DNA of 52,291 nt, filler included, from Jimgerdemannia flammicorona (Eukaryota), in NCBI GenBank assembly GCA_003990765.1. It is 2 parts of 2 records of this genome, joined end to end, with 100 filler letters (N's around TTAATTAATTAA, not from the genome) between each part and the next. Parts side by side here need not be neighbours in the genome. Positions count along the whole stretch, not along the records: positions 1 to 26,099 come from RBNJ01000762.1; 1 more part is not named here. One strand, written 5' to 3'. This document shows, piece after piece, positions 7,187 through 41,229 of this stretch (its first letter is position 1; each line of letters starts with the position of its first letter). Position numbers and translations under genes: made by a program. The notes beneath the pieces were generated by a model. That model saw only the letters and a list, made by a program, of their open reading frames with translations. It was not told the DNA's origin and made no database searches.

Positions 7187-10100
7187 CTCAGAAGATACAG
7201 ATCAACTATAGAGGAAGAAAGATACAAGTTTCTATTAATGTCTACAAAGAAGTACTATCAGACACAGAGGAAGGAGATAAATAGAACACAGAAGTCTTTA
7301 TGTACTTAGTATACAAGAATAAAGCAAGACAACTAAGCTCACAAATGAGCAGTAGTAGAGTAAGATCATCAATGGCTATGCCCCTTAAGGAAGATGCCCC
7401 TATGATTCTAGGATGTACTGCTCTGAATACCTAAATAACTGCTGGTCCTATATCAGTAAAGTTAGAAAAATCTATCAACAAAAGTACAAACAAGAAGCTA
7501 CAGAAGCAAAAAAGAAAGCTGAAGAAGATGACCAGCCCCCAGAGCTTCAAGCTGATAGTGATGATGAGGAGGAATAAGAACCAGACATCACTCTTAAGGT
7601 CAAGAAGTTTTATCTCAAAGCCAAGATCTCAGAATATAAGACTAAAGAAACTATAGAAATGAACCTTATCAGTATTCAAGATACTATCCTTAAACCACAG
7701 ACCACTACTCTACTTGACACTAGAATTGGAGTCAAGCTATCAGAGAACTATATCAGAATTATCAAGACCAGGAGTAGTCTGGCTAAGAGTAAAATCTCAG
7801 TTGAAGGAAGAGTTGTTGACTCTGATTATACTGGTGAGATCTTTCTTATAGTCAGGAATCACAACTCTACCACTCTATTTAAAGTCAAGAAGTATGACAG
7901 AATTGGCCAGATGCTGATCCATGAAGTTAAGAAGTCTAAGATCACTGAAGCCATTGAACTCATCAAGACTAAGAGATAAGAATAAGGCTTGGGATCTACT
8001 GGAAGAGGAGCCTATGCTGTCACTACGATTATCAAACTCTAGCACAAGAAAGAGAAGGACCAGAACAAGCACACATATATCATTGGAGAAAACATTTCTC
8101 TAGAAGAACAACTTCTCAAGATTCTGCACCAGAATGGAGAAGTACTTGCTACAGACTTTAGGGATATCCACAACCAAGAATTCAAGTACTACTATAAAGT
8201 TAACACTAGTGATACTAAGCCTATATACCATATAGTCTGACCTATACCATCTGTCTACAGAGAATGACTGTGAGCAGAACTCAAAGAAATGGAAGAAGCT
8301 AGTATTATTAAGCAAGCTATCAGTTCCTGGACTTTACTTATTGTCCTTGCTTCAAAGAAAAGAAACAAGTCTGGAGAGTTTTCCCCAAGACTCTGTATTA
8401 ATTATAGGAAGCTCAATGCAATTATCAAGAAGGATAGATAGCTCTTGCCAAATATTTAAGAAATCCTTACCACTCTTGGAAGTGAAGCCAAATACTATAC
8501 TACCTTAGATCTGTTCTCAGGCTTCTATCAGATTGGTCTCACTCAAGATACTAGTAATCAATAAGCCTTTATTATACCTGATACCACTTATGTCTATCTA
8601 TAAATACTATTTAGAATGTGTAATTCTCTAGCAAATTTTCAACAAATGATAAATAGAGTCTTTGATAATAAAATTAGAAAATAGCTCTTTGTCTATATTG
8701 ATAATGTGATCATCTTCAGTAATACTGTAAGGGAATATATCAACCATATATAGCTAGCTCTCAAGAAGCTCAAGGAGCATGCCCTCTATATCAAGCCCAA
8801 GAAGTATAAGTTTGAAGCTCAAGAAATCACCTACCTAGAACATATCATCAATCAGACTAGAATTCATATGAACTCCATGAAGATTGAGGCTGTCACAGCC
8901 TACCCAAGACTAAGAAAAACTATAGAAGTCTATGTCTTTCTTGGACTGGCCTCCTACTACAGAAGATTTATCAAAGGATACTCTAACATTGCAATATCTA
9001 TCTATGAGCTATGGAAGAAGGAGATCAAGTTTGAATAGACTAAGAAATATCAAGAAACCTTCAATAAACTCAAGACTAAATTGACCCAAGCACCCATTCT
9101 TAGAAGACCAGATTGGAACCTAGAGTTCATCCTGCAGATAGATATAAGTACTATAGAACTTAGAGCAGTGCTAGCTCAGAAGAAAGATAGACATAAATAT
9201 ATCATCTCTTATATAAGCCAAGATACCCATAAAGCAGAACAGAACTATGAGTTATGTAAGCTTGAATACTTAGCAGTAGTCTAGACAGTAGACAAGTTCC
9301 ACTACTATCTAGCTGAGAAATACTTCTCTATTCAAACAGACCATTCTGCTCTTGCCTGACTATTCCACACTCTAAACTCCAAAGAAGTATATGCTAGATA
9401 GATCTACAGATTGTAAGAGTATAACTATACTATAAAATACTACTTAGGAAGAACCAATGCCAATGCTGATACACTTTTAAGAATACTCTGAAATATCCCT
9501 ATCAAGACTATTCAATATAAATAAGAAGCTATACTATGGATTAATTAGCTATCTTGGGTAGTAGAAGATATTCAATCACCTTGAACCCTGAACTATTACT
9601 ATCAAACCAGACTTGGAAACAATTTGAACTAGATAACACTATACTTAAAAAAGGAGAAAAACTTATCATACCCAAATACAAGAAGTATCAAATAATGAAG
9701 AAAGTACATGAATAAGGATACTTAGGAGGAACCAATATATACAATAAGGCAAGAAGAACTATGTAGTGGTCTAAGATGGAAGAAGACTTGTGCTAATTTG
9801 TCAAAGAGTATAATAAGTACCAAAAACAAAAATAAGATCAGTAAGACCAAGCACTTAGATTATCAAGAATCAAATCTATCCTCTTCTATTATATCACAAT
9901 AGATATCATTGAACCACTATCAGTAACTATACTATATTTTAGTTATTGTAAATCTCTTTATTAAATAGATAGAAGCAAGAGTATTACAAAAAGCCAATAC
10001 TCTCTCTATTGCTGACTTTCTGTACTAAGAAATCATCTGCTACTATAAGATATGTACTAAGACAAATTACTACAGACTGTGATAGAGAATTTTTCAACAG

Positions 10101-12669: not shown

Positions 12670-15600
12670 ACAGTACAACTAGAATATTCTCTTTAAACCT
12701 AAATAGGTTATGGGGGGCAGCTAGGAGAAAGTATATATTTGGATGGCTAAAGAGTCTGGATGCAGATCTATTTTTACTGCAGGATGTCCATTATGAGGTG
12801 GATGTGGACTTACAGGATTGGACTAAGGAATGGGGGGGGACTGCAGTGTGGATGGGGAGAGTAGGTATCCTAGTTCGAAAGGGGATGGGGGACATTGGGG
12901 ACATTGGAAATTGGGGGACTTGGTTGGTGTGGGGAGTGTGGAAGAGGCCTGGATGGAGCCCATTGATGGTGGGGTCATGTTACTGCCTGGTAGAGAGAGG
13001 GGAACAGGTGGATTGGATTCAAGGTTTGAAAGAGATCAGTGTCTTGGGTGAGGTTGAGTTTGACTGCCTGAGGGGTGACTTCAACATGGTGTGGGATAAG
13101 GGGTTGGACAGGACAGACAGTGGGAGAGGAATGAGGAGCAGGAGTGGTAGATTGGATGATTGGTTGGAGATGGAGAGGTTGAGGTCTTTGGTTGATTCAG
13201 AGAGACAGTTTTGAGATAATCATCAAATTTATACTTACTGGGTGATGGGGCTGGGCTCAAGAATCAACTGGATATTGATGGTGAAATGCTGGGGAGTGGA
13301 TGTCTGGACAATGCTAGAGGTGGTTTGGTGTCCATGGTCAGATCACTGGGGTCTGTTAGGAGGGGGGAGGTTTGGGGGTAGTGGAGATGGGCCTGGACAT
13401 TAGCATCTGAATTCTTCTTTATTGGAGGATGGGGTCTTATGGGTGGATTGGGAGAAGGAGGTTGTTGGGAAAATTGGGAGGTGGCAGGAACAGGGCCTGA
13501 TGATTGGGGATTACTGGAGGAGGCTGAAAGTGAGTGCTCAGGGGTATTGGAGGGAAGCAGAGAAAGGGAGGTATACTCAGTGGCAGAGGAGGGTGCTGTG
13601 GGCCTCACAGTGATTGGCAGCAATTATGGAGAGATGGGCAGGGGTGCTAGAAGACTGGGAGGCAGCCAACTGGCATATTGTGAGGATTAAGAAGGAAGTT
13701 GAGGAGCTTCAGGAAGTGTAATGAAGAGAGGAAGAGATTAGGCTGAAGGGAATGATGGCCTGGCTGAGATGGCAGGGGCTTGAGGAGAGAGAGAGACCCA
13801 CTAGGTTTTTATTGTGGATGTTGCAAGTGCAGCAAACTAAGCAGCAGTTGGATAGGCTTCTAGATGAGGATGGAGAGATGGTGGTGGGGACTCCAGTGAT
13901 TCTGGAATTACTGAGAACTCATTAGGAGGATTTGTGAAGTAAGGAGGTATGGGGGGAGGATGCTTTGAACATTGAAAGGCAGTTGGAGGATTGGTATCCA
14001 GACCCTGCAATGGGCCTGGAGACTCTGGGAGATCTAGTAAAGGGTGAGGAAATTTGCAAAGTCTTGGCTATGACAAGTAGGGAGACAGCTCTGGGTGAGG
14101 ATAGACTACTCTGGGATTTTTGGAAGAAGATGGTGGGGGTGACAGAAGTATTGGAGGAAATGATGGCAATGTGTGGTGAGGTTCTTTGGTCTGGAACTTA
14201 GATTGGGGGCCAGTGTCTGAGACTGGTCTCCTTGCTCTACAAAGATAAGGGGTGATAGGAAGATTGGAAGAACTGGCAGCCAATCATGCTACTTAACATG
14301 AACTGCAAACTAGTGATAAAGATATTAGTGACAAGGCTGCAGAGAATCACTCAGCAAGTACTGGGTATGGAGTAATGAGGATTTGTCAGTGGCTGGTTGA
14401 TCCAAGATGAGATGGCTTGGGTACATAGTTTGATTGAAGGGACTCGGGCTGCAGGGGTAGATGACAGATTGGTTTTTTTGGATTAGGAGAAGGCATATGA
14501 TAGAGTGAGGAGGATCTGGCTGAAGGGGGTGTTGAAATGGGTTGGTATTCCCCCAGGGTTCCAAAGGTCACTAATTGGTCTCCTGGAAAATAGTCAGGCT
14601 GCATTGGTTGTCAATGGTCACAGGAGTGTAACATTTTCTCTTAGTCGTGGGATACTGCAAGGAGATCCTTTGTCACCCATCTTATATCTCCCCCTGGAGC
14701 CCCTACTAGACAGGATCCAGCATCAAATTGGGGGTTTGGACATTCTAGGGATTAATTGGAAGGTGGAGGCCTTTGCTGATAACATGGTGATTAGACTGGA
14801 CTCATTAGCAGATGTGGGGGAGTTAAGGAGATCTGTTGAATAGTATGAGAGGGGCTCTGGTGCTAAACTCAATTGACATAAATGTGAGACTCTGGTGCTA
14901 GGTGGCAGAATCATTGGTGGTGACATAATTGGGATGGTGGTGCCAGCAGGAGAGCCAGTTCATTACCTGGAGATCTACTTTTTGGTATTTGGGTCCCTTC
15001 TGCCCTGTGCTTGGTGAGATCAATGACTCCTGGAGTGGGGAAATGTGCTTTTGTGATAGGGTGGTCAGCATATATCTTTGGCAGAAAGGGTGATAGTGCT
15101 GAATATGTATTGGATGCTGAAGCTGTGGTATGTGGGGTATCATCTAGACTTCCCAGTTTGGGTGGTCAAGAGACTGTTGAAAATGGCAAGATCATAGATC
15201 TGGGCAGAGCAGCAGAGTCAGATAGATTGGGAGATTCTGACCCTCCCAGTGGAAAGGGGTGGGCTGGAATTAGTGGACTTTCCCAAATGACTTCATTGCT
15301 TGAGAGTATGGTGGCTGAGGAGAGTGAGCAAGCTGAGGGGTCAGAAGTGGGTACTACTTATACAGAGGGTGTGGAAGGCTCAGTACTCCCCTCATGGAGC
15401 TTCTGGTGATCTTTTTGCATTGGTGGCCATAGATGAGAGCAAGAGAATGTAGTATAAGGGCTTTTGGTATAGGGTAGTAGATAGTGCTAGGTGAATTGGA
15501 CTTTGGTGGCAGAGTGATCAGAGAGAGGAGGATTGGAGACTGCAGATGTGGAGATGGGACAGACTACTGCTGGGCAGTGTTTTGGTGGAGGACTTTCAGC

Positions 15601-20087: not shown

Positions 20088-20210
20088 ATGCCTCCGATAA
20101 CAAAAACCCCTAAAAAACCGCGCTGCAATAACTGCAAATTCTGGATTTCTTGCGACAAAAATGATCCCTGTTCAAGATGTCGCCGGCTGCGAAAGGATTG
20201 CTCGTATGCC
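20088..20210 (+). other. Zn(II)2Cys6 (GAL4-type) binuclear cluster-like domain
   Basis: KKPR-CNNC-KFWIS-C-DKNDP-C-SR-C-RRLRKD-C-SY; C2-C3 spacing is 5 rather than the canonical 6. Confidence 0.75.
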
Positions 20211-23200
20211 GGCTACAGCATGCGAAGAACTTTGACAATGGAAGAATTTGTCGCAAATACGGAAAATCCCATCATCTCGCTGCCAACGACCCTCCCCCCA
20301 GTAAGGTCATCACCTACACAAAGTAAGTTTCTACATCGTCTGTGAACACGATCTCAATCGAACCATTAAATGACACGCTACTAATAATATCTCGTAATAC
20401 CTAGACATGTCACAACTAATCACAACGGAAGATGGCGTCGCAAATACGGAAAATCCGATCAACTTGCCACTGACGACCTTCCTCCCAGTAGGGTCATCAC
20501 TAACATCAAGTAAGTCTCTAGGCCTCTGGGAACACGATCTCATTCGAACCATCAAACAACCCCTGCTGACAATGCCTCACAATACCTAGACATGCAACGA
20601 CCAAAGTCAACAGAAAATAGCGTCGCAAAAACTGAAAATCTGATCAACACGCCGCTGAAGACCCTACCCCCAGTAGGATCATCACTAACAACAAGTAAGT
20701 TTCTACAGCCGATGTCATTCGATCCATTAAATGTCCCGCTACTAACAATATCTCTCAATACCTAGGCATGTCACCACCAATTACAACGGAGGATAGCGTC
20801 GCAAATACGGAAAATCCTATCAACTTGCCACTGACAACCCTCCCCCCAGTAAGGTCATCACCAACATCAAGTAGGTTTCCACAGCCTCTGTGAACACGAT
20901 CTCATTCGAACAATTAAATGACACGCTACTAACAATATCTCACAATACCTAGACATGTCTTCTAACTATAATTACGTGACCGTCGACGACAGGGGGACTA
21001 TACCATTCAGTCAACAAATCATGCGTGTATCATTGTTGAAAGGCCCTGACAACTCTACTGAAATCCGAGTCCAAGTATCTGCTGAACACAACGCAGAGCT
21101 CGAATACAGCCATTCCTTCTTCTTTGAAGCTATTGAGGACAGACGCATTGCCATTGAGGTCTTCGACAAAAAACCTAGGTCACACCTACTCGTGAGATAT
21201 GGCATAAAGTAAGTCGAAACATCCAGCCTCATCGAACATTATCGTAAAATCCTACCTTAACTCACATATAATGATAACTCAGATTGTTCAAAGCCCTCTT
21301 CAAGGACGATTCTCCCGCCAAGCGGCTAATTCAGAGAATACCACCGTGCGCAGTCCTGCTCGAGCTCAACGGCGACCAAGCCCTTGATGACATTCCTTGG
21401 GAATATGCATATGTATCGTCCAGCGACATGTACCTAGTTCACGAACGCGCGTTCACCCGCATGTTCATGCCCACGAGAAAGGAGGAAGAGCTTCAGTTGC
21501 AGAAACGTATGCTACGCGTTGTTGTTGTTGCACCGGACCCCGTCAATGCAAACCTTCCAGATTTGCATTTGAGCGAGCAGTTCCAGAGCTTCATTAACGA
21601 ATATTCTAAAAATATTAAAAAAGTATTAATGGAGTACGTGTTTCCGCCCACCGTCCATCGGATGGACGAGTTGCTCATGAAGGAGCCCGACACAGCCACA
21701 GTGCTTCATTTCATGGGACACTGCGAGTTGTTGAAGGGCAATGCGAGGGGCCTCATCTTCGAAACAGAGACGGGGGAATGCGAATATGTTGACAAGCTTC
21801 TCTTCACCGGTGTGCCCAAAAACCTGCGACTCGCATTTTTGTCGGCTTGCAATACCCGCGACGTCGCCCGTGCCCTGCTCCAGTACGGCGTTCCGTACAC
21901 CATTGGTTCATATTGCGCCATACCGGACGACCTTGTCCGCAAGTTCGAATCCACGTTCTACCAATGTCTTACCAGTGGCTACACCGTCGAGAAGGCGATG
22001 TGGAAGGCGCGTCTATTTCTCCAACAAAAAGACCTCCGGGAATGCCACTATTTCCCTGGTGCCATGGTACTCTACTCGTCCGCGCTTCGGGAAGATGACG
22101 GCGCGTTCAAGTGCGAGGAGGGCATACCCGTGATCGATACCCACATGCCTCGCAATAACCTCGAGGTATTCACCGACACACGCAATTTCTGTGGACGCAA
22201 GAAAGATCTGATTAAGATTGCCGGCATTTTACGGCGTATGGTGAAACAAGGGGAAAAAACTTATCCCATATATACCATTGAAGGCATCACTGGTCAGGGC
22301 AAAACTAGGTTGGCCGAGAAGGCGGTCAGGCGGACGGCGCATCTCTTTCCCGGTGGGATATTCGCTTGGCAATTCGATCGCATGGGGGTGTCGGTTGCTA
22401 AATATCTCTCAAATCTGGTTGAGGTCATATTTCCGGATGATGTTCAGTCGCGCTTGAAGATTCGGAGTGCTGGGGGCAACGATGTTGAGCGCTTGGAGAA
22501 AGCCGTCATTAAGGAATTTGTGGATTATCCTACTTGTTTGTTAATCCTCGATCATGCCGAGAACCTGGAACACGCCAAAGCTGGTGATAAGGATGCTGTG
22601 GCGTTGGGAAAATGGCTTCGGAAAATTACATCAACATCGAATGGCGCTGTCAAAATTCTTGCAACGTCGAGTGAGCCTCTGCGGTGGACAGGTGAGGACA
22701 GGATGCATCTCGATGGTTTGGATATTGACAGTGGCGTTGAGTTGTTCATTCGAAATCTCGACGCTGAAGTAAAGCAGACGTTGGAGAATGAGAAAAATAC
22801 TACGCAGTTGCTGCAGGACCTCGTCAGGCTCGTAGACGGACATCCACTGTGCCTGAAATCCCTAGCTCATATAGTCGGCTTACCACAACATCGCAATGTT
22901 TCGCTTGAGCAATTGGTTCAAGAACACTGCAGTATATTGCTGGCGAATGGCTTGCATGAAAGTACAAACCTCGGCACTCTTTTAGGACCATCGATCAACA
23001 TGCTTACACCACTGGAACGCGAGTTACTGTACATTTGTTCTCTCTTCACCGGATCAATCACAGAAGGAGTGCTCGAATTCGTTCGCTATTTTGTTGAGTG
23101 CGTCAATGGGCCCAAAAGTGGGATCAATTCCAGTGAGACAATCGCGACCAATCTTCAACAACTATACCGTCGCGGATTATTGTCTAAACAAGATGAAGAA

Positions 23201-26099
23201 TACAGGATGCAATTCGCACTTAGGGAAGGCACGAGACTGTGTAATTCCATGTTGAAGTTCCGTCTGCGTTTGCCTATCCCTGGCTTGTGCGATGATACAT
23301 TTGTAATCGGCGTGGTCGGACCACACCCACACGGTAAGTGAAATAGTGAAAAGAGATGGTGTTGCTATCTCCTTTTTATTTTCTCTAACTCTATCGATCT
23401 TCATTCAGAGAGATCTATTGTGCTGGAATGGCAACTCCGAAGATTTCAAGCCCACGCCCAAAGGGAGCTGAAAACCGGGGTTTTCGGCATAGACTACTAC
23501 TCCATAGGAAATGCGGGTCTTCGAATCCTAAATATTCCCGGCATAAACGAGAAAGGCGCCAAAGCTGCCCAACAGCCGCATGCATCCTTCCGTGGGTTAG
23601 TTGTATTCGTATACAACATATCCGAAGGCAATCACAACAGCTTCCAACAGGTCTGCACAAAGCAAATTGTACCACTTGCACAAGAAAAACAAATTACCTT
23701 TATTCTTTGCTTAAACCATACCGACGAGACGTTTGAAAGACGGACTGCTTCATTTCTGTCGAAGAAAGCTGCCGAAATTCTTCGAGACAATCTTGAGAAG
23801 TCGCACTGGATCATTAGGACAGAGGCACCACCCAGTAGGTTTAAATTGTATACCCATCCCAATGATCTCTATTGTATACATCAAAATGGTTTTACTTATG
23901 TTATTGTTATATCTATTTAACTTATTATCCAAAATATATTTTCTGGAAGGCATTGTGCAAGCAAGGGGGGAAGAGTATGTGAACTCAGGTGGGAGAACTT
24001 TCTGTATTACAGAGTAAACAGATGCGATTCATTGGAGTTCTGGACTGACCGAGATACTTTCAATCCGCCTACAGTTTCGAATGAAAATCTCAATCTCGAC
24101 AACAAAACCGTAGAGACGATTTACCGTAAACGTAACGACAACGTCCACATGGAAGGACCTTTCATTGGGCGCAAAGGAGATCTCGAAAAATTGGACAAAC
24201 TTCTCCAAGGCTCTGAACGCTACATCACCATCAAAGGATTCGGCGGAGTGGGCAAAACGTCGTTAGCGCTTCAGGCTTTCGGAAACTTCAACTCCGGTAG
24301 CGCTCTTGCGCTTTCTCTTGCTGGAGCTCCAAGGGCAAGCCAAGTGATCCTGAAAATGGCAGAGTTTTTCGCGATTGACACTAAGTGCTTAAACGATCAA
24401 GACCAGCAGAATGAAGTCCTCGGGAAAATGGAAAGTAAAGAGTCAATTTTGCTCTATCTCGACAACATGGAAGACGTCAAAATAGCGATGGAAAGTAGTG
24501 TTCCTGGGACGAAAGAGGAAGCAAGGACATTAATAAATTTTTTCAAGAGGTTACCAGCCAATGTCCAAATTCTCGCAACCTCAAGAATCGCATTAGGTTG
24601 GCCTAAAGAACGTTTGTTCGATCTGGCTGGCTTGGAGCCACGTGAAGGCATGCTTGTTTTTCAACAGTGGACCCCTCAACGCTCGGAAGCGGGCGATACA
24701 GATGACCAAAGCGGAATGGATCTCAGCCGCGTAACCGACGGTCATCCATTGTCGCTGCGCCTTCTTGGAGGCATGTTTGACAATTGTAAGGATCCTATCC
24801 ATCAATTCGTCAAAGAGGTCTGTGATCGGCTAACGGTGGCCGTGAATCCCGAATCCTTTGACAAGCGACACGAATCGATAGACGACTGCATCAAGTACAG
24901 CTTCGAATACCTGAATGATGAGTTGGGGACATTCCTTGGTGGGTTGAGGGCGTGGAGCATTCCATTTACATCAACTCTTGTCATGCGCGCTTTGATGAAT
25001 GAACCTTCAGCTCCATCAGCATCGCTTGTGTCAACCAATTTGCACAAACTTTGGCAAAGAAGCTGGCTAAACCGACGAAAATACGAGGTCGACCCAATGC
25101 TCGGTGACTGGCGCCCCAACATTATCTCGAATGAAACCGAGTTTTATAGCCTGCATCCACGCCTACACGACTTCCTTAACCACCGGTTTGATAACGTCGA
25201 GGCTATTCTTCCCAACGATGCAGAAATTCAATTTTACACTGCACTGTGCTACGGAGTAGGATTTGGTGTTGCAAATGATCTAGCCAAACAAATTGAGTGG
25301 TCCACTAAGGCTGCGAACAACGGTCATTTGGAAGCGCAGTTAACGCTTGCTGCTTGTTATCAGGGAGGGTGCGGTGTTAGCCGAAGTAAGCAGAAGGCAT
25401 TTGATTTGTTCTTGAAGGCTGCCGAGACCGGAAGCAAACAAGCGCAAAGCGAGATCGTGGTGTATTACCGGAAAGGCTATGGTGTTGATAAAAATGAGGA
25501 AAGAGCGACTTTTTGGGAAAAAGTTGTTAAAAGAAACAAGACGGCGCCACTTTTGATTTCATTTGACCTTTCTCTCCCGCTAATGCATCGCTTTGCATTC
25601 GGTGGTGATGTGGTAATGGTCAGATCACTCTGTTCTCGTACCAGTGACGTCAGTGTTCGAGACAGAATCGGGAGAACCTCGCTGCACGTGGCTGCACAAA
25701 TCGGTCACATTGACCTCATCGAGGAACTTTTGTATGAATGCAATGCTGATATTTCCCTCAAGGACATTTATGGTCGAACCCCAATCCACCTGTCTGCACA
25801 AACTGGTCACCACGAGGCTGTATGGTTCTTTGTGACTGCCTGTGGCGTTGACCCTAACTCGAAAATTAATTCTGGTTGCACACCCCTCCACCTCGCTGCG
25901 AATAAGGGGTCTCTCGAAGTCGTAAAAGTGCTCTTGGCCGACTCCAAGGCGGACCTCAACGCCAAGAACAACGACGGGTGGACGCCCCTTCACTTCGCTG
26001 CGCAGAACGGGCACGTCGAGGTCGTAAAGGTGCTCGTAACCGACTCCAAGGCGGACGCCAACGCCAAGTCAATCCAAGAAGCTACACCTCTACATTATG
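20088..26099 (+). CDS. Multi-exon NLR-like protein: Zn2Cys6 - 35-aa repeats - CHAT protease - STAND1 - degenerate G-domain - STAND2 - SEL1 - ankyrin; 3' end lost in gap. Exons 20088-20322, 20405-20509, 20590-20694, 20766-20870, 20953-21208, 21283-23333, 23409-~23838, ~23950/24013-26099
   Basis: Six GTA(A/G)GT...YAG introns (71-82 bp), most with CTAAY/CTGAC branch sites, join the ORFs with matching phases; the last intron (somewhere in 23835-24021, removing TAA 23918-23920) has uncertain boundaries; CpG content is normal and long frames are intact. Confidence 0.75.
20235..20957 (+). repeat. Four tandem ~176-187-bp units, each an exon segment plus intron
   Basis: Repeated gtcgcaaatacggaaaatcc..ccagtaaggtcatcac..aa|gtaagt..ctaa..aatacctag|acatg; introns 20323-20404, 20510-20589, 20695-20765, 20871-20952; internal exons are exactly 105 nt. 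Confidence 0.92.
21283..22078 (+). other. CHAT (caspase HetF-associated with TPRs) cysteine protease domain
   Basis: LDDIPWE, LRVVVVAPDP, VLHFMGHC (His 21719-21721), LAFLSACNT (Cys 21848-21850), LLQYGVP, FESTFYQCL..G.TVEKAMWKAR, GAMVLY. Confidence 0.9.
22184..23220 (+). other. STAND (NB-ARC-like) NTPase 1 with helical/winged-helix region
   Basis: FCGRKKDL, Walker A GITGQGKT (22283-22306), Walker B LLILDHAE, ILATSS, DGHPLCL, LQQLYRRGLL. Confidence 0.9.
23300..23810 (+). other. Degenerate Ras/Roc-like small GTPase domain (spans intron 23334-23408)
   Basis: After splicing: IGVVGPHPHERS (G1 position), LRILNIPG (DxxG position), VVFVYNIS..NSFQQV, FILCLNHTD (NKxD position). Confidence 0.6.
24161..25180 (+). 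other. STAND (NB-ARC-like) NTPase 2
   Basis: FIGRKGDL, Walker A GFGGVGKT (24236-24259), Walker B LLYLDNME, ILATSR, DGHPLSLRL, SFEYL, YSLHPRLHDF. Confidence 0.92.
25210..25530 (+). other. About three SEL1-like repeats
   Basis: GVGFGVANDL..WSTKAANNGH; AQLTLAACYQGGCGVSRSKQKAFDLFLKAAETG; AQSEIVVYYRKGYGVDKNEERA. Confidence 0.88.
25580..26099 (+). other. Ankyrin repeats (5 complete plus start of a 6th), truncated by gap
   Basis: GRTSLHVAAQIGH, GRTPIHLSAQTGH, GCTPLHLAANKGSLEVVKVLL, GWTPLHFAAQNGHVEVVKVL, ATPLHY. Confidence 0.95.
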
Positions 26100-26199
26100 N
26101 NNNNNNNNNNNNNNNNNNNNNNNNNNNNNNNNNNNNNNNNNNNTTAATTAATTAANNNNNNNNNNNNNNNNNNNNNNNNNNNNNNNNNNNNNNNNNNNN
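26100..26199. other. Artificial scaffold/concatenation gap with all-frame-stop linker TTAATTAATTAA (26144-26155)
   Basis: 100-nt block of N containing a palindromic six-frame stop linker; contiguity across it is unproven. Confidence 0.95.
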
Positions 26200-28294
26200 C
26201 CCCCCCTACTCCTTCCCTATGAAAGACCATCTTATCTAATACCATTTCCACCCTTCCTCCACTTTGCTCACAGATCGTCGCCACCAAACTGCACTGGCGT
26301 CCACCCTGAGGACCCCAGCCCACCCACCATCTAGTCAAAAGATCTCCCAACAGCTCCTCCTACCGTAATACCTTCTCCCGGCACCCTGCCTGCTGCCCCT
26401 CCTCAAATACAAAAAGCCAATGGCCCGCTATCCCCACCCACATTGCCAACACCCACCCTACAGTAACCCAACTGTCGCCCACCCCCCTCACCAGCCAAAA
26501 CCTCAAGTCCTCCCAGCGGCCCCCTACACCCGCCGGCCTCCGCTCCACACCCAGTCTGTTGCCTATTTCTACCCAAAAGTCCCCCAATACCTCACACTCC
26601 CCCAGCCAATGTTCCGGCATCTGCACAAATCCCCCATCTTGCCCCACATTGTAACACTCCTCACAATCAAATTGGCCACCATCCACCAGATGCCCAGTGT
26701 GGAAATTCAGCATGACATTCCTCCACAGCATTCGCCACCACACCACCCAGTACTTGGGAGGAAGCCATCTCTGCACCTCAGCACTCCAAGACCAGATACC
26801 CGCCCAGTCCCACTCCTCGCCGATCCCTGCCCCCTGCCAGCCACTTGGCCTAAGATCCTGGCCAAGACCCAGCTGACACTCCACCCCATCTCCAAGATCA
26901 AATGTTTCAATCGGAGCACCCCCCAGCAGCAGTCCATCCCATCTCCACATATCAGATCCCCACACCCCCTCCCCCTCATTGTCTTGCCAGCGCAGGCCAA
27001 TCTGGTGGGCGCCGTCCACCACACCCCACCAAAAGCCTTTAAACCGCAGCCTCCTACTTCCATTCAGCCCTACCAGAGCGAGCAGATCCCCGGAGGACTC
27101 TTGAGGGGAGGTCCTCATCTCCCACACCTTCTGCAGCAGTGGCACCCAACTCCCACCCCATAGTTCAGCAGCTCTTTTCAACCACTAGGCACGCAAGCAG
27201 TGCAACCTCTTAGGGAAATCCATGAGGCCAAGACCCCCCCTGACCACCGGTGTTGCAAGAGTATCCCAACCAATCTGGGACCTCCTCCCTGCCCAAATCC
27301 AATCTCTCACCATCTTCGTCAGCCTCTTCACCACCCAAGCTGGGAAGTCCAGGTGATAGGCCATGTACCACAGCTTGGGGAACCAGTACATATTCAAAAT
27401 CGACACCCTCCCCGCCAGAGAGATACGGTGGCCTCCCTAGCCGCGAAGGGCCTCCCCCCAAATGGTCACCCTGCTCTCCCACCACCCTCGCGGCAAGACA
27501 GAACCATAGACAGAGAGGAAGATGCCCAGGTATCTCACCACCTCACCTGTGGGGACAATTGTTCCAATGACATCTCCACCCACTAGCCCATTTCCAAGCA
27601 CCATTGTCTCACACTTATGCCAGTTGAGCTTCGCCCCTGAGTGCACCTCATACCATTCCACTGTCTCCTTGAGAGCCTCAACATCCGCCACAGACCCAAG
27701 TCCGACCACCATATCATCAGCAAAGGCCCCCACCTTCCACTCTATACCATATATAGAGAGCCCTGCCACCTTCCGGCGAATCCTATCCATCAGTGGCTCT
27801 AACGAAAGGGCATAGAGAATAGGGGACAGAGGGTCCCCCTGAGGAACTCCTCTATCCAAGGAGAACACCAGACCACGATGACCATTATACATCAGTGCCG
27901 CTCGACTACTCTCCAGCAGACTCAATATAGAAGTCCGAAATCCTGGTGGAACACCAATCCGGTCCAATACCTTACCCAGCCAAACCTGTCATACTCAGTC
28001 ATAGGCCTTCTCCTGGTCCAAAAAGACCAACCTTCCATCCAGACCACAAGCCCGGGCCCCTTCAATGACACCATGCACCCACGCAGTCTCATCTCTTATA
28101 AGTCTGTCTCCAACAAAGCCCCTCTGCTCCTCCCCCAGTACCTGTTGGGCAACTTTCTGCAGTCTTGCGACAATCACCTTAGTCACCATCTTCCTGTCCA
28201 TATCCAGCAGCATGATTGGCCTCCAATTCTTCCAATCTTCCCTCCTCCCCTTGTCTTTATACAATAAGGCCACCAGTCCGAGGTCCTGCTCTCC
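26200..28294 (-). mobile_element. L1/Tx1-type LINE (LINE-C), 5'-truncated ORF2, closely related to LINE-A but much less decayed
   Basis: GEQDLGLVALLYKDKGRREDWKNWRPIMLLDMDRK, GVPQGDPLSPILY, GAFADDMVV, GGLGLMDFPKRL, CEEC..MPEHWLGEC; retains many CpG. Confidence 0.93.
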
Positions 28295-29596
28295 AGGCAG
28301 TGGTCTCTTCCTCAAATTTTCTTTACCATATCTCCCAGGTGGGCAGTCATTTTGGCAAACCTTTTGGTGAGTTTCTCCATAGTATCACTGTTCTTTTGCT
28401 GCTCTGTAGCTTTGGGCTGAGGTGTGTTTCGATTGATCATTGTGGTGGAGATCACACTGGTTGACTTAGGTACCTCAATTCTGACTTCTATAACTCTCTC
28501 CATTATATGGTCTTATGGGTGTCTGGCTATCCAGTATCGCTGAGCATAGGTGACCTTTTGTGGCAGATCCAGAATCACTGGTAATAAGCAGATGGCCATG
28601 GCTATTTCTGGATGGACTCCTTTCATGAAGATTGCTTCAGCTACTTGATCTCAGATAGCAGCAGCATATTCTGCAAGGATTATCTGATATCAAATTCTGG
28701 TATAGAATGTGTTTGGATCCTCACTCATTCCTTGGCATGTTGTATTGAGCTGATCCTTCAGGGCTTGCTTGATCTCATCTGTATAATATGTATTTTGGAG
28801 CCAGGTCTTCTGTGCTATCAGTATAGCATCGGCATTATTTCCTGCATGGGTTGTAGCTGTAAATGCTGCTCTAGCAGGACCTTGTAGGCTAAAGAGCATG
28901 AGGGCTACTTGCTGTGCTGCTGTCAGGGTCTTTACAGTGATATACTGCTCAAAATCGTCAATGAAGGTGATGATTGATTTATCTGAGGTATATCTATGGA
29001 ATACTGATAGTCTCATATCCATCTTGTCTGGGTATTGGGGCTTGGTTTGTATGGTTGTTCGAGTAGTGGTGGTTGTTCATTGTTCAGCTTGAAAGTGAGG
29101 GATTCATCTTGAATCACCAGCCAATAGGCACTAAGTTGTAATGTAGTAGATGCTTACTCTTGAAAGCATGTCAGATTTCTGTATCTTGAAAACTTGACTA
29201 TTCTGACTCTTACAGAGTCTCTTGAAGTTGCAGGGGAGAGTGGGTGAGTTCAAAGTATATCTGCCCACAGGCTTACTAGTTCCTTTACTATCTCTTTGCT
29301 TTGGACTATTTCAATCTGAGGTTTATTCACTCGAAGATACTAGATTATTTATACAAGTTTGCTAGCTATGAGATAAGTTATATGGCTAGGTTATGAGTCA
29401 TTTAACACTTTGCAAAATATTTCACCAGATGTGAAATGCTATACTATATCAAGAAGCTCGATCTCACACTTTGTGAAATATTTAGCAAGTGGCGAAATCG
29501 AGAACTGCTAACTATGTGGCTATACTACTTTGGGACTGGGTGCAATCAAGTGTCTGTTCCCTATTTCCTTCTTCTGAATCTGGCTATACTATCACA
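28295..29596 (-). mobile_element. 5' fragment of a minus-strand Gypsy related to A/B/C: gag, PBS and a different, apparently shorter LTR (~29137-29596)
   Basis: FHRYTSDKSIITFIDDFEQY..NTYYTDEIKQALKDQLNTTCQGMSEDPNTFY matches A/B/C gag; minus strand acttagtgcctattggctggtgattcaagatgaatcc matches the B leader; far LTR end uncertain. Confidence 0.8.
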
Positions 29597-31980: not shown

Positions 31981-34900
31981 ATGGAAATACATCCCCCCAT
32001 ATTCTATAAATATACTACTAAAGAGTCAATCCTGACCTTCATTGAAGACTTTGAACAATTTGCCACTATATGAACCCTTGGTGTGGATGCTCAATTGGCC
32101 CTTCTACCAGTCAGCCTTGGAGGATCTGTCAGAGACAAGTTCAATGTAGCCACTATTGCTGATACTGGTGCAGCCAAACTTGCCAACATGAAGGCCTTCC
32201 TCAGAATAACATACTATACTGAAGAGATCAAGCAAGCTCTCAAGGATCAACTCAATACTATCTGCCAGAGACTTAGTGAAGATCCCAACTCATTCTATAT
32301 CCAAATCTGCCACCAGATTGTTCTGGCTAGCTATGATGATGCCCTCAAGGAACAAATAGCAGATTCAACCTTCCTCAAAGGTGTTCACCCTGAAATTGCC
32401 CTAGCAATCTGGTCTACCCCAGTTGCACTGACCCTTGATCAGAAAGTGGTCTTTGCACAGAGATATTGGACTGCCAGACACTCTGCTGAACACTCAATGG
32501 AGAAAATAACTGGCATCAAGATAGAGTCATCAAAGCCAACCAGCATTATACCTACCACAGTTGTAAACAGACAAACATCCCCACCTATCCCCAAGGTACC
32601 CAAAGCTGACCCAGTGGAAGAACTTGCCAAGCAGTTCACTGAGATAACTACACACCTTGGTGATGTTGTTAGAGAAGTCTGAAGTGCCAACAGGAGACCA
32701 GTGTAGAGATTTACAGCTGCTATAGAAGAATGCAATATTATATACTTCAGATGTAGAGAAGAAGACCACTATGCAAAGAATTGCATGACCAAAACAAGAT
32801 ACAAAGCTCAACCAAGCAAAGCTAGCAGAACCAGAGAACAAATCAATACAGTAGTCATCAAAGAGATTGGTGATACTGATGATGAAGAATACTACAAAGA
32901 GCTTGAATACTACTCTGCTACTGAAGGTACCAGAACCTGGTCCAAGCCCTATGACAAGAAGAGCAACAGTAAGCCAGTTGGAAGACCAAAGAAGACCCCA
33001 GCTATCACTATTCAAAGCAAGACCCAACCTGAGGAGATTGATCAAGACATGGAGCTAGATGAAGCCACCCACCAAATTATTGAAGGTACTACTCCAGTCT
33101 TAAGAAAAAGTGAAAGTAAGAAGGAACAGAAGCTGTACAAGACCAAGATCCACTAGTATGATATCTACAAGGACCTCAAGAAACAGAAGGTCAATACTAT
33201 CTTTGGACAGCTAGCTGAAGTCTCTGCCTTCAGACAGCAGTTGAGAGTAGGACTTATAACTACTATCAAGAATCAAGAGTACAAGATTGTAGAAGCTCAC
33301 AATGCATAGAAAGAATCCAAAAACTCAGGTGAAGAATCTGAAGACCAGCCCAAGACATCAGCCTATATCCTTTGTCAGATTGAAGACTGTATTTTTGATG
33401 CCATCATTGATACTGGTGCTGGAGGATGTCTCATAAGCAAGAAGACAATTGACTGCCTAGGTTGAGACATTGAAGAGTTCACCAAGATGGTCTATATTAT
33501 AGCAGATGGTATATGAGCTACCCTCTTTGGCAAAATCTGAGAAGTCCCCATTAAGATAGAAGGAGCTACCATCCCAGTAGATGTGATTGTTATAAGCACC
33601 ATGAACAATGATATCCTCATTGGCAACCAATGGCTTCACAAGGCCAAGGCCATCATTGACCTCAATGTCCAGAAGATGCAAATCAACTATAGAGAAAGAA
33701 AGGTACAAGTCTCTATCAATATCCATAAAGGAGTTCTACCAGACATGGAGGAAGGAGATGAAGAGGACACAGAGGTCTTCATGCACTCAGTAAACAAGAA
33801 CAAGAACAAGAACAAGACACTCAAGCTCACAGATGAGCAGTGGTACAATAAGATTATCGATGGGTATGCCCCTCAAGGAAGATGCCCCCATAGTACTAGG
33901 ATGTACTGCTCTGAACACCTGAATGACTGCTGGTCTTATTCAGTGAAGTTAGGAAAATCTGCCAACAGAAACATAAGCAAGAAGCTGCCAAAGCAAAAAG
34001 AAAAGTCAAAGAAGATGACTAGCCCCCCGAGCTTCAGGCTGATAGTGACAATGAGGAGGAACAAGAAATAGACATCACCCTCAAGGTTAAGAAGTTTCAC
34101 CCCAAAGCTAAGATCCCAGAATATAAGACTGAAGGAGCCATAGGAATGGACCTTACCAGTATTCAAGATGCTACCCTTGAACCATAGACCACCACCCTAC
34201 TTGGTATTAGAATTGGAGTCAAGCTGCCAGAGAACCATGCTGGAATTATCAAGACTAGGAGCAGTCTGGTCAAAAGCAAAATCTCAGTTGAAGGAGGAGT
34301 AATTGACTCTGATTACACTGGTGAGATCTTCCTTATAGTCAGGAATTACAACCCCACCACTCCATTTGAAGTCAAGAAGTATGACAGGATTGGCCAGATG
34401 CTGATCCATAAAATCAAGAAGCCCAAGATCATAGAAGCCATCAAACTCATCAAGACCAAGAGAGAAGAACAAGACTTTGGATCTACTGGAAGAGGAGCCT
34501 ATACCACCACCAAGATTACTGAACTTGAGCACAAGAAAGATCAGGACCAGAACAAGCACACATATACCATTGGAGAAAACTTTTCCCTGGAGGAACAACT
34601 TCTCAAGATCCTGCATCAGAATGAAGAGATACTTGCTACAGACTTCAGGAATATCTACAATCAAGAACCCAAGTATTACCATGAAGTTGACACTAGTGAT
34701 ATCAAGTCCATCTATCAGAAAGCCAGACCCATACCACCTGCCTACAGAGAATGGCTGTAAGCAGAACTCAAGGAAATGGAAGAAGCCAGAATCATTAAGC
34801 AAACTATCAGTCCCTGGACCTCACCCATTGTCCTTGCCCTGAAGAAAGGAAGTAAGTCTGGAGAGTTTGCACCAAGACTCTGCATTGACTACAGGAAGCT

Positions 34901-37247
34901 CAATACCATCACCAAGAAGGATAGACAGCCCTTGCCAAATATTCAAGAGATCCTTACTACTCTTGGAAGTGAAGCCAAATACTACACCACCTTGGATCTG
35001 TTCTCAGGCTTCCATCAGATTGGTCTCACTTAAGATACCAGTGAGAAATCAGCCTTCATCATATTTGATGCCACCTATATCTACCTGTGAATGCCATTTG
35101 GAATGTGCAATGCCCCAGCAAGTTTTCAGCAAATGATGAATAGAGTCTTCAGCAATGAGATTGGAAAATAGCTCTTTGTCTATGTTGAAGATGTGATCAT
35201 CTTCAGCAATTGCACAGAAACATGTCAATCACATACAGCTAGTCCTCAAGAAGCTCAAGGAGTATGGCCTCTACATCAAGCCTAAGAAATACAAGTTTGC
35301 ACCTCAAGAAATCACCTACCTAGGACACATCATCAACCAGACTAGAATCCACACAGACCCCATGAAGATCAAGGCTGTTGCAGCCTACCTGAGACCCAGA
35401 ACAATTACAGAAGTCTATGCCTTCCTTGAACTGGCTAGCTACTACAGAAAGTTTATCAAAGAATACTCCAATATTGCATCACCTATCTATGAGCTACTGA
35501 AGAAGGAGACCAAATTCGAATGGACCAAGGAATGCCAAGAAACCTTCAATGAACTCAAGACCAGGTTGACCCAAGCACCTATCCTCAGAAGACCAGATTA
35601 GAACCTAGAATTCATCCTGCAGACAGATGTGAGTGCAATAGGATTTGGAGCAGTCCTAGCTCAGAAGAAAGATAGACATGAATATGTCATCTCCTACACA
35701 AGCTAAGGTACCCATGGAGCAGAACAGAATTATAAGTCATACAAGCTCGAATGCTTAGCAGTAGTTTGGGCAGTAGATAAGTTCCACTACTATCTAGCCA
35801 GAAAATACTTCACCATTCAAATAGACTACTCTGCTCTTGCCTGGCTATTCCACACTCTGAACCCCAAAGGAATATATGTCAGATGGATCTACAGGCTGCA
35901 AGAGTATAACTGTACTGTCAAGCACTACTCAGAAAGAACCAACACCAATGCTGATACACTCTCAAGAACACTCCGAAACACCCCTATCAAGACTATTTAA
36001 TATGAATAAGGAACTATACTATGGATTAATTAGCTACCTTGGGCAGCAGAAGATGCTCAACCACCTCAAACCCTAAATAATCACCATCATCAACCAGACT
36101 TGGAAACAGTTTGAACTAGACAACACTACACTCAGAAAAGGAGGAAAGCTAGTAATATCCAAACATAAGAAGTATCAAGTAATGAAGGAAGTATGAGCAA
36201 GGATACCTAGGAGGAGCCAATACATATGACAAGACAAGAAGAACTATGTGGTGGCCCAAGATGGAAGAAGACCTATACCAATTTGTCAAAGAGTGTGATA
36301 AGTGCCAAAAACAGAAACAAGATCAGCAAGACTAGGTACTCAGGTTATCAAGAATTGAGCCTATCCCCTTCCACCACATCACAATGGATATTATTGAATT
36401 ACTACCAGTAATACTATCAGGAAACTGCTATATTATAGTTATTATAGACCTCTTCACCAAATAGATAGAGGCAGGAGCATTACAAGAAGCCAATGCCCTT
36501 TCTATAGCTGACTTCCTGCACCAAGAAATCATCTGCCACTATAAGACACTGAAGCAAATTACAACAGACTGCAGTATAGAATTTGTCAATGGATTTCATG
36601 AGATAATGTATCAGAAATACAAGATCCAGCACATCAAGACCACTGTGTACCACCCTCAAGAAAATGGACAGATAGAGAGAACTAACAAGACCCTCAAGAA
36701 CATCCTAGTAAAGATCTCAAAGACATATGAGAATTGGGATAATTATCTCTCAACTGCCCTCTCTGTCCTATAAGACATATAGTCACAGAGCACACACTTT
36801 ACCCCAAGGGAACTGCTCTTTAGAGAAGAAGATTCTGATGGAACCTCAGCCACAAATCTAGACCTAACTTGGAGATAGGTTGATGCAGAAATCCGAAGGC
36901 TATACCAAATCAGAAAGAAGGCTGAAGATTATATCATCAAGTCACAAGCACTGACAAGAAAGAATGTGGAAAAGAATTACAAGACCCTAGAACTCATCCA
37001 AATTGGAGAAAAGATTCTACTATATTGAAATATGGTAGAAGCCTTATAGTCACAAAAACTGGAGCCCAAATGGAAAGGACTCTTCTACATACAAGATATC
37101 AAGGGAACTACCTTCTAGCTTAGAAAAATCTCAAGGACCATACTGCCTACCACAGTACACAGGAACAGACTCAATAAGTACCATGAACCTATATAAGAGA
37201 AGCAAAATGTGATGACTGCCCATGAGGTTCTAGTCCATGAATTGTAA
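31981..37247 (+). pseudogene. Gypsy-B gag-pol: gag (decayed CCHC knuckle), aspartic protease, dUTPase, RT, RNase H, integrase
   Basis: YFRCREEDHYAKNC; AIIDTGAGGCLIS; SPWTSPIVL..RLCIDYRKLN..DLFSGFHQI; LTQAPILRRPD; integrase core seen clearly in copy C (PFHHIAMDI..VDLFTKWIEA..YYPQGN); gag and PR share one frame. Confidence 0.92.
34080..34490 (+). other. dUTPase domain between protease and RT (also ~7590-8005 in A and ~45000-45420 in C)
   Basis: KVKKFHPKAKIPEYKTEGAIGMDL, RSSL, VEGGVIDSDYTGEI, KYDRIGQM, KREEQDFGSTG, corresponding to trimeric dUTPase motifs 1-5. Confidence 0.92.
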
Positions 37248-40010: not shown

Positions 40011-41229
40011 CATATCCTCATACAACATCAGTAGTCCCATTCTACCCCAATCTCAACCCACTCCCAGCCTTGCACCTTTAGGGTGTGAGTTGCGACCTCA
40101 CTGTCCGAGTAACTAGATCTTCCTACCCGGCCTGCCCCACCTAGTAGGTATGGGTTGTGAGCCCCAACCACCTCAAGTACTTGGCATCTAGTGCACCTGA
40201 CCTACCCCTATTAGTGCCTCCTGTCTTTCCCATCTAGTCTGTCTTGCCCGCCCATGTTGCCTGTGTTGCTATCTTACCGTCTTGCCCATCTTGCCTGTCT
40301 TGCCCACTCATGTTGCCCATGTTGCCCATGTTGCCCGTATTGCCTGTGTTGCCCATGTTGCCCGTGTTGCCCACCCATGTTGCCTGTATTGCCCATCTTG
40401 CCCATATTGCCTGTGTTACCCATCTTGTCTGTCTTGCCTGTCTTGCCCATCTTGCCCGCCCATGTTGCCCATGTTGCCCATTTTGCCTGTTTTGCCTGTT
40501 TTGCCTGTCTTGCCCATATCGCCTGTCTTGCCATCTGCCTGTCTTGCCCATGTCGCCCATCTTGCCATCTTGTCCTTCTTGCCTGTCTTACCCGCCTGTG
40601 TTGCCTGTATTGCCTGTGTTGCCCATGTTGCTCATGTTGCCCATGTTGCCTGTGTTACCCACCCGTGTTGCCTGTGTTGCCTGTGTTGCCCGTATTGCCC
40701 GCCCATGTTGCCCATGTTGCCCGTGTTGCCTGCCCATGTTGCCAGTGTTGCCTGTGTTGCCTGTTTTGCCTGTTTTGCCTGTTTTGCCCATTTTGCCCGT
40801 TTTGCCCATTTTGCCCATCTTGCCATCTGCCTATCTTGCCCATGTCGCCATCTTGCCATCTTGCCCGTCTTGCCCGTCTTGCCCGTCTTGCCCATCTTGC
40901 CCATCTTGCCCATGTTGCCCATCTTGTCATCTTGCCATCTTGCCCATCTTGCCTGTCTTGCCCATCTTGCCCACCCGTGTTGCCCATGTTGCCCGTGTTG
41001 CCCGTGTTGCCCATATTACCCGTTTTGCCCATGTCGCCTGTCTTGCCATCTGCCCATCTTGCCCATGTCACCTGTCTTGCCATCTTGCCATCTTATCTGT
41101 CTTGCCCATCTTGCCCGTCTTGCCCGTGTTGCCCATGTTGCCTATGTTTGTTTCTCCAAGTTGTATGTAAAACCATTGCTTGAAGTTTGTGTAACGTAAA
41201 TTGTACCAGAGAGAGATGTGTCGACCATG
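40011..41229. mobile_element. 1219-bp non-autonomous insertion carrying a ~920-bp 9-mer minisatellite, flanked by a 17-bp direct repeat
   Basis: ataatttaactattgta at 39994-40010 and 41230-41246; no TIR, poly(A) or recognisable coding domain; retains CpG. Confidence 0.7.
40225..41145. repeat. Degenerate minisatellite, unit ~TTGCCCRT(G/C/T)
   Basis: Roughly 100 units such as ttgcccatg, ttgcctgtg, ttgcccgtc, ttgcccatc. Confidence 0.95.

Follow-up and report, generated by a model that had tools for sequence, protein, structure and literature searches.

The stretch of DNA analysed here (the window, 52,291 nucleotides in full, of which positions 1 to 26,099 come from record RBNJ01000762.1 of the Jimgerdemannia flammicorona assembly GCA_003990765.1) carries a plus-strand gene whose parts, located in window coordinates with Pfam for the domains and tblastn for internal homology, read in the order CHAT, NB-ARC, an inter-NB-ARC domain of ~155 residues, NB-ARC, Sel1 and ankyrin repeats. 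By its sequence the whole gene classes as a nucleotide-binding oligomerization domain (NOD)-like receptor (NLR) or signal transduction ATPase with numerous domains (STAND), since it has NB-ARC-type NODs with Walker A and Walker B motifs, and C-terminal repeats. By tblastn the two NB-ARC domains share homology (27% identity, E 1.8e-10), and in hhalign the pair matches AAA with 96% probability. An earlier note on this DNA had described a nucleotide-dead GTPase domain hidden between two STAND modules, and the placement is borne out, as NB-ARC1 and NB-ARC2 flank the domain by both Pfam and tblastn. We hold with modest confidence that this inter-NB-ARC domain is a strongly diverged relic of a P-loop GTPase of the TRAFAC class, in which the nucleotide motifs have eroded family-wide.

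The domain is assembled from the last 12 codons of exon 1 and the whole of exon 2, which after splicing (23297–23834) encode the ~155 residues; the winged-helix tail of NB-ARC1 continues directly into its β1 strand. The extent of 23300..23810 given in the earlier note thus falls on the domain and stops slightly short of its end at 23834, while the four peptide strings on which that note relied were all recovered in the same order, on the plus strand and at the window coordinates listed in Table 1. Removal of intron 1, which had been said to be necessary for seeing the domain, joins FVIGVVGPHPH to ERSIVLEW (..DDTFVIGVVGPHPH to ERSIVLEWQL, with the E codon split), and after ERS the motifs follow in exon 2 in the order LRILNIPG, then VVFVYNISEGNHNSF, then FILCLNHTD. 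The intron has GT..AG borders, is in frame and coincides with a gap in the Endogone gene-model alignments: two of these models, P0030 and P0084, open a gap of 22–25 residues exactly over it (tblastn against the window), their FVIGV/FLIGV being aligned with β1, and homologous open reading frame (ORF) fragments carry AT-rich, non-homologous N-terminal extensions that end at the intron point. For intron 2, the model P0020 matches 23483–23842 and then 24068–24367 (tblastn against the window), many homologous fragments end in ..P.GKL, which corresponds to reading through a GGTAAG donor at that position, and an in-frame stop at 23918–23920 falls within the intron. The predicted splice sites of both introns are therefore supported by comparison with Endogone gene models and fragments. 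Exon 3 starts with a short linker (ISNENLNLDNKT..) that leads to the second NB-ARC.

An exhaustive phmmer search with exon 2 across 1.84 billion representatives listed 150 matches, among which at least 36 are short homologues (97–284 residues) that align over nearly the whole exon with 27–46% identity. These true relatives are mostly ORF fragments from run assemblies, and those with a name are from Endogone; P0030, P0084 and P0020 are NCBI gene models of Endogone sp. FLAS-F59071, which together bridge both exon junctions. In all three of these bridging relatives the position of the domain is fixed, after the winged-helix end of the first NOD and before the second NB-ARC. Conserved across the paralogues are the core hydrophobic stretches LEW, FGIQYY, (G)LVVF, SE, PFILCL and L..L..TH.II.TE. 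The inter-NB-ARC domain is a real conserved family, and because homologues exist and the GTPase-profile scores described below exceed all 60 permutations, its motif pattern goes beyond chance. The other 114 of the 150 listed matches are long proteins that align, many times over, only to query residues about 45–90; among eight of these that were checked, seven are Big_9/Cadherin repeat proteins and one is of low complexity. Kinship with bacterial cadherin or Big_9 domains was rejected, and the link is taken as a short-motif match summed over repeats, because the domain is predicted to be α/β and not all-β. Elsewhere the searches were empty: phmmer of exon 2 against the PDB gave no match at E ≤ 10, word-index homologue searches gave none among longer proteins (P0030 found only itself, and the alignment gave six), none of the 55 stretches matched in JGI metagenome contigs by a nine-sequence alignment was confirmed as a relative, and the six PADLOC families matched by one member each were not informative.

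In the window copy the canonical residues of the three nucleotide motifs are replaced in an open frame, just as the earlier note had read them: Gly-Lys by Glu-Arg, DxxG by NxxG and NKxD by NHTD. At G1 (Walker A, GxxxxGK[ST]) the spliced sequence is GPHPHERS. Among ten relatives the first position of the terminal triple is G in five, E in three, P in one and D in one, and the second is K in six, I in two, R in one and N in one, while the third is S in 5 of 12. A complete GKS stands at the β1–α1 turn in two of the ten, namely in the gene model P0084 and in the ORF fragment P0071, where the K-S lies inside exon 2. At G3 (Walker B, DxxG) the window has NIPG; of the 21 sequences in which the segment is present, 9 have D in the Asp column and 2 have a complete DxxG. 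At G4 ([NT]KxD) the window has NHTD, 14 of 36 members keep the Asp, and His occupies the Lys position in 20 of 38. No family member examined combines G1, G3 and G4, and P0071 lacks the β3/G3 segment and reads KRIK at G4. With Glu-Arg in place of Gly-Lys, NxxG in place of DxxG and NHTD in place of NKxD, canonical binding and hydrolysis of GTP by the window copy would be very unlikely.

The AlphaFold2 (AF2) model of the window copy (predicted local distance difference test, pLDDT, 77.9; predicted template modelling score, pTM, 0.73) has the order β1 (FVIGVV, residues 7–12), α1, β2, β3, a short α2, β4, α3, β5, α4 and β6, with β2 and β3 linked by a two-residue turn as a tight hairpin. The P0030 model repeats this order minus α2. 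The predicted order is that of a small GTPase minus α5. Among the best 50 structural neighbours in the VIA list, 10 of the 26 rows that align with the α/β body are GTPase entries (RagC, Gtr, LRRK1 residues 638–799, Hbs1, eRF3 and Gq). For P0030 the ESM Atlas has a separate model (low confidence, pLDDT 0.48), whose nearest cluster is an archaeal G domain (Arf/Gtr1_RagA/MMR_HSR1), with a template modelling score (TM) by query of 0.63 over 144 residues spanning 107–261, a span that includes β1; 4 of the 10 listed Atlas structure rows for P0030 are GTPase clusters, with TM of 0.54–0.63.

Profile-profile comparison with hhalign was controlled with E. coli sets of MMR_HSR1 G domains (11), EF-Tu-type domains (8), receivers (29), ABC (20), short-chain dehydrogenases/reductases (18) and AAA domains (10), together with 30 bacterial TIR_2 domains, 30 bacterial Ras-family proteins and the two NB-ARC domains of the window. 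The family scored 24.6–26.1 against the 11 MMR_HSR1 G domains in all four query versions, with a probability of only 5–12%, and 19.9–31.8 against pooled GTPases, with a best probability of 43%. In the null, the highest scores were 19.9 for 30 column permutations and 17.2 for 30 block permutations, while reversed sequences scored 9–10, and among the control families Response_reg scored 11.3–14.6, ABC 15.8–17.4, adh_short 12.1–14.4 and AAA 11.2–11.4. A degenerate duplicate of the neighbouring NB-ARC was tried as an origin of the domain and discarded, as the score of 13.7–17.2 is noise. The alignments to MMR_HSR1 and to pooled GTPases cover 71–139 columns and include the G1 Lys and the G3 Asp: the Lys of the family pairs with the Lys of Walker A, ‘iiDis’ has its D (the Asn of NIPG in the window) at the DxxG Asp, and k-h-x-d (NHTD in the window) matches N-K-x-D. 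The same register at G4 was seen when the PDB was searched with hmmsearch, where klPFILClkhaD was aligned with KLPFIVVMNKTD of GPN1 (E 0.27) and with PFIVALNKID of eIF5B (E 1.2), placing NHTD on the NKTD and NKID of these two GTPases.

Descent from a GTPase is thus favoured because the secondary-structure order includes the β2–β3 hairpin and G domains are the nearest neighbours for two predictors, because the profile signal is specific, exceeding those of controls of eight kinds and of 60 permutations, and because three motifs stand in register with relics of GKS at the β1–α1 turn. These lines are several, independent and individually weak, and they favour this ancestry and do not prove it. 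A number of results weigh against it. The window copy was folded by AF2 with intron 1 read through, which left an artefactual helix at residues 23–37; the GTPase alignments in the VIA list cover model residues 66–180 and exclude β1, a strand that only three sequences of the family cover; and no member out of 38 has [NT]KxD at G4. The best family score of 31.8 is lower than that of NB-ARC against MMR_HSR1 (36.8), and profiles made from EF-Tu alone (12.3–17.1) or Ras alone (15.9–16.3) stay within the null range, so that the parallel drawn in the earlier note to the Ras family in particular does not stand: its score of about 16 is noise, and the signal lies instead with Era/Der-type and pooled GTPases. 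Pfam gave GTP_EFTU at 12.1 bits for the window copy, against a cut-off of 26.5 (E 0.15), and no MMR_HSR1 match; a GTPase family appeared at E ≤ 1 in only 2 of 37 members, with RsgA_GTPase at E 0.033 in one of the 37. Foldseek, which had been proposed as a check, gave no match to the PDB at E ≤ 0.001 for either model, the best E values being 0.013 and 0.14 with TM of about 0.15–0.3, and no GTPase was among the matches listed. The claimed GTPase-like order of G1, G3 and G4 therefore survives in part: the positions align with those of real GTPases in profiles, whereas Foldseek and Pfam provide no significant match.

The most serious competitor, which we consider unlikely, is that the domain has no kinship with GTPases and serves the second NLR module as its N-terminal signalling domain, of a flavodoxin-like (TIR-like or other) kind, and that the motif parallels are those expected of any β-α-β domain, in which hydrophobic strands are followed by polar turns. 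The position directly N-terminal to NB-ARC2 is the usual site of an effector domain in NLRs and would suit such an origin. The β3/G3 segment is furthermore missing in 18 of the 39 aligned sequences, which are then five-stranded and fit a flavodoxin-like domain more easily; in the members having the segment, however, the tight β2–β3 hairpin is predicted. A language-model feature search of the Atlas with P0020 led to TIR clusters (TIR_2) at 0.76–0.80, but a third of shuffled proteins likewise attain 0.80. The Atlas structure search also brought up DUF4062 (TM 0.48) and a response regulator (TM 0.47), yet the GTPase clusters are higher (0.54–0.63 against 0.41–0.48). In hhalign the 30 TIR_2 domains scored 14.2–19.3, within the permutation range, and the 29 receivers were lower still; no TIR family was found by Pfam at E ≤ 1 in the 37 members. 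Entries for TIR, receiver and flavodoxin domains were not among the best 50 rows of either VIA list, which is not evidence of their absence. The failure of Foldseek to list a GTPase agrees with a flavodoxin-like domain.

More unlikely still is a lineage-specific α/β linker without detectable relatives, in which the GTPase signal would reflect one short convergent stretch in which a polar x-x-D turn comes after a hydrophobic strand. The Ras profile, of which only 17 columns align, around PFILCLkh.d, shows the pattern that such a linker would give, and it would equally account for every database match outside the family being insignificant and for the lack of a prokaryotic or metagenomic relative in the searches above. 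The alignments to MMR_HSR1 and pooled GTPases, however, extend beyond G4 to the G1 Lys and the G3 Asp, the GKS relics of two relatives lie exactly at the β1–α1 turn, and G domains are the nearest neighbours for two independent structure predictors. Taken together, the chance that the domain is a flavodoxin/TIR-like effector domain or an unclassifiable α/β domain is appreciable and short of even.

The domain may still act as a non-canonical nucleotide switch, in the window copy or in the GKS paralogues, and would then add a third nucleoside triphosphate-dependent step to the receptor. The Lys at the Walker position in six of ten relatives, the GKS of P0084 and P0071, and the frequencies of the G4 Asp and of His at the Lys position, which suggest some constraint on the turns, speak for this; we nevertheless rate it as highly improbable, given the Glu-Arg and the Pro and His residues in the loop of the window copy, the lack of any member with all three motifs, the state of G3 and G4 in P0071, and the absence of NKxD from the family. 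Integrated decoys are known in plant NLRs, and to our knowledge these stay close to the protein that they mimic. That the domain is such a decoy, an inactive copy of a small GTPase of the host that lures microbial effectors, which the earlier note had supposed beside a scaffold role, fits the context of an NLR-like receptor with an extra internal domain but is scarcely credible, because the domain resembles no present-day small GTPase closely enough for an obvious mimic (Ras profile at noise level; no Ras, Roc or Arf by Pfam and none by Foldseek) and because its fixed position in all paralogues seen resembles that of a structural module.

The inter-NB-ARC domain would instead have been kept as a structural or adaptor module, or as a spacer, between the two NOD modules, as suggested by its N-terminal slot before NB-ARC2 and its fixed position in all three bridging relatives. 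It would fill the slot of the N-terminal signalling domain for the module formed by NB-ARC2, Sel1 and ankyrin repeats, and it would probably couple this sensor module to the upstream CHAT-NB-ARC through contacts that do not depend on nucleotide. The coordinates of all parts are collected in Table 1.

Table 1. Parts of the gene and of its inter-NB-ARC domain in window coordinates (α, β: predicted helices and strands).
Feature	Position	Strand	Basis and remarks
Exon 1 (CHAT and NB-ARC1)	21278..23333	+	Open frame and Pfam; 5' limit is the frame start, not a mapped exon edge
CHAT	about 21332-22039	+	Pfam E 7.2e-16
NB-ARC1	about 22226-22873	+	Pfam E 0.0053, 16.5 bits, under cut-off
NB-ARC1 Walker A, GITGQGKT	22283-22306	+	Sequence
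NB-ARC1 Walker B, LLILDHAE	22538-22561	+	Sequence
β1 and first half of P-loop-like turn, TFVIGVVGPHPH	23297-23332 (+ 23333, first base of split Glu codon)	+	Sequence; AF2 strand
G1 relic, E-R-S	E = split codon 23333 + 23409-23410; RS = 23411-23416	+	Sequence
Intron 1	23334..23408	+	75 nt, GTAAGT..TCAG, phase 1, in frame, one TGA; splits the P-loop-like turn
Exon 2 (body of inter-NB-ARC domain)	23409..23834	+	Single open exon
α1, SIVLEWQLRRFQ	23414-23449	+	Sequence
β2, FGIDYYSI	23483-23506	+	Sequence
β3 with G3 relic, LRILNIPG	23519-23542	+	Sequence
β4 and start of α3, LVVFVYNISEGNHNSF	23597-23644	+	Sequence
β5 with G4 relic, FILCLNHTD	23699-23725	+	Sequence
β6, HWIIRTE	23804-23824	+	Sequence
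Intron 2	23835..24074	+	240 nt, GTAGGT..ACAG, phase 1; joins exon 2 to the NB-ARC2 exon
Exon 3 (linker, NB-ARC2, Sel1, ankyrin)	24075..26099	+	Pfam
NB-ARC2	about 24185-24907	+	Pfam 28.9 bits, cut-off 23.5
NB-ARC2 Walker A, GFGGVGKT	24236-24259	+	Sequence
NB-ARC2 Walker B, LLYLDNME	24449-24472	+	Sequence
Sel1 repeats	around 25331-25426	+	Pfam 2.3e-09
Ankyrin repeats	about 25784-26068	+	Pfam Ank_2 2.4e-57

The ankyrin part of exon 3 holds a 102-nt tandem array at 25883–26068 (1.8 copies, 82% matches). Exon 3 is cut within the ankyrin region by assembly gaps, two runs of 44 N at 26100–26143 and 26156–26199, which make the 3' end of the gene unreadable; the sequence beyond these runs is proline-rich and retroelement-like. 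Just upstream of the CHAT exon lies a tandem repeat at 20349–20959 (period 176 nt, 3.4 copies, 76% matches), whose repeat peptide (..VANTENPINLPLTTLPPV..) occurs in three frames because 176 nt is not a multiple of 3, and a Cys-rich stretch at about 20090–20200 has no Pfam match. Remains of retroelements, comprising reverse transcriptase fragments on both strands, three dUTPase-bearing ORFs, an aspartyl protease and an integrase, are found at 748–1227, 7578–7976, 14487–14840, 27440–28384, 33541–35598, 44855–45673 and 47080–47544, so that the receptor gene lies in a transposon-rich region. Between 10000 and 16000 the window has a strong positive GC skew (0.40–0.56), raised G+C (0.46–0.49) and long ORFs on both strands without a Pfam match, except for one weak reverse transcriptase fragment. 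At 40220–41143 about 98 copies of TCTTGCCCA (period 9/18 nt, 73% matches) make up a long microsatellite-like array, in which each strand has several open frames.

Several elements of this arrangement have precedents, as pseudoGTPases in multidomain proteins (PMC5593906, PMC12490416), CHAT-NB-ARC NLRs (PMC9815663) and the G domains of ROCO proteins are known already. The class-i pseudoGTPases, such as pG1 and pG2 of p190RhoGAP and the N-terminal domain of AAGAB, likewise have a G-like fold within a larger protein, have lost the motifs and serve protein-protein contacts (PMC5593906, PMC12490416); their status derives from crystal structures and binding assays, whereas the fold and the loss of binding are predicted for the inter-NB-ARC domain, whose host, moreover, is a fungal NLR-like protein with STAND modules in tandem. 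The Era/Der/EngB-type TRAFAC GTPases (MMR_HSR1) are the best profile-profile partner, with up to 139 columns and with the Walker Lys and NKxD in register, but in the window copy G1, G3 and G4 are not canonical. The Rag/Gtr-like small GTPases, including the Asgard LokiRagM (9m28), are also counted among the closest systems. ROCO proteins (Roc plus COR, e.g. LRRK1) differ in that the inter-NB-ARC domain has no COR, has NB-ARC STAND neighbours and has eroded G motifs; the absence of COR had been remarked on in the earlier note, and no COR family is found by Pfam at E ≤ 1 in the downstream 726 residues, where NB-ARC follows. TIR-NB-ARC receptors resemble the present gene in having a small α/β domain directly N-terminal to NB-ARC, to which the weak language-model TIR matches may be added, and differ in that the inter-NB-ARC domain scores at noise level against the TIR_2 profile and lacks a TIR Pfam match.

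With the CHAT-NB-ARC-repeat NLR-like proteins of fungi and bacteria the gene shares its first module, CHAT plus NB-ARC, to which Sel1 and ankyrin repeats are added here at the C-terminus; unlike these, it has two NB-ARC modules in one polypeptide and an extra domain between them. CHAT is one of the 19 N-terminal Pfam domains catalogued for fungal NLRs, and in the accessible text of that catalogue no GTPase-like domain appears among the 19, the word ‘GTPase’ occurs 0 times, and no tandem-NOD chain with an internal domain was seen (PMC9815663). A survey, as far as its accessible text goes, reports that the Mucoromycotina proteomes it examined yielded neither NACHT nor NB-ARC proteins (PMC7928374), whereas Endogone sp. 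FLAS-F59071 has gene models of NB-ARC NLR-like proteins. In the open-access literature searched, no description was found of a fungal NLR with a GTPase-like domain, of an internal domain within a tandem-NOD chain, or of any NLR from Endogonales.

On a broader and distinctly improbable view, Endogone-like fungi would possess an as yet undescribed class of receptor with two NOD switches in one chain and a GTPase-derived domain between them, joined to STAND proteins independently of ROCO. Some paralogues keep GKS at the P-loop, which leaves room for continued nucleotide binding in part of the family; these members would then be three-switch receptors, while the eroded copies, that of the window among them, may have turned into adaptors alone, or into baits for those factors of associated bacteria whose targets are host GTPases. 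If the GTPase ancestry is true, the family would represent a natural series of G domains at successive stages of motif loss, which would be useful for asking what a pseudoGTPase retains once nucleotide binding goes, and it would provide a second route, beside ROCO, by which a large signalling ATPase can be coupled to a G domain. Should the ancestry be false, the domain would still stand for a conserved, foldable family that is new and belongs to an unstudied class of fungal receptors.

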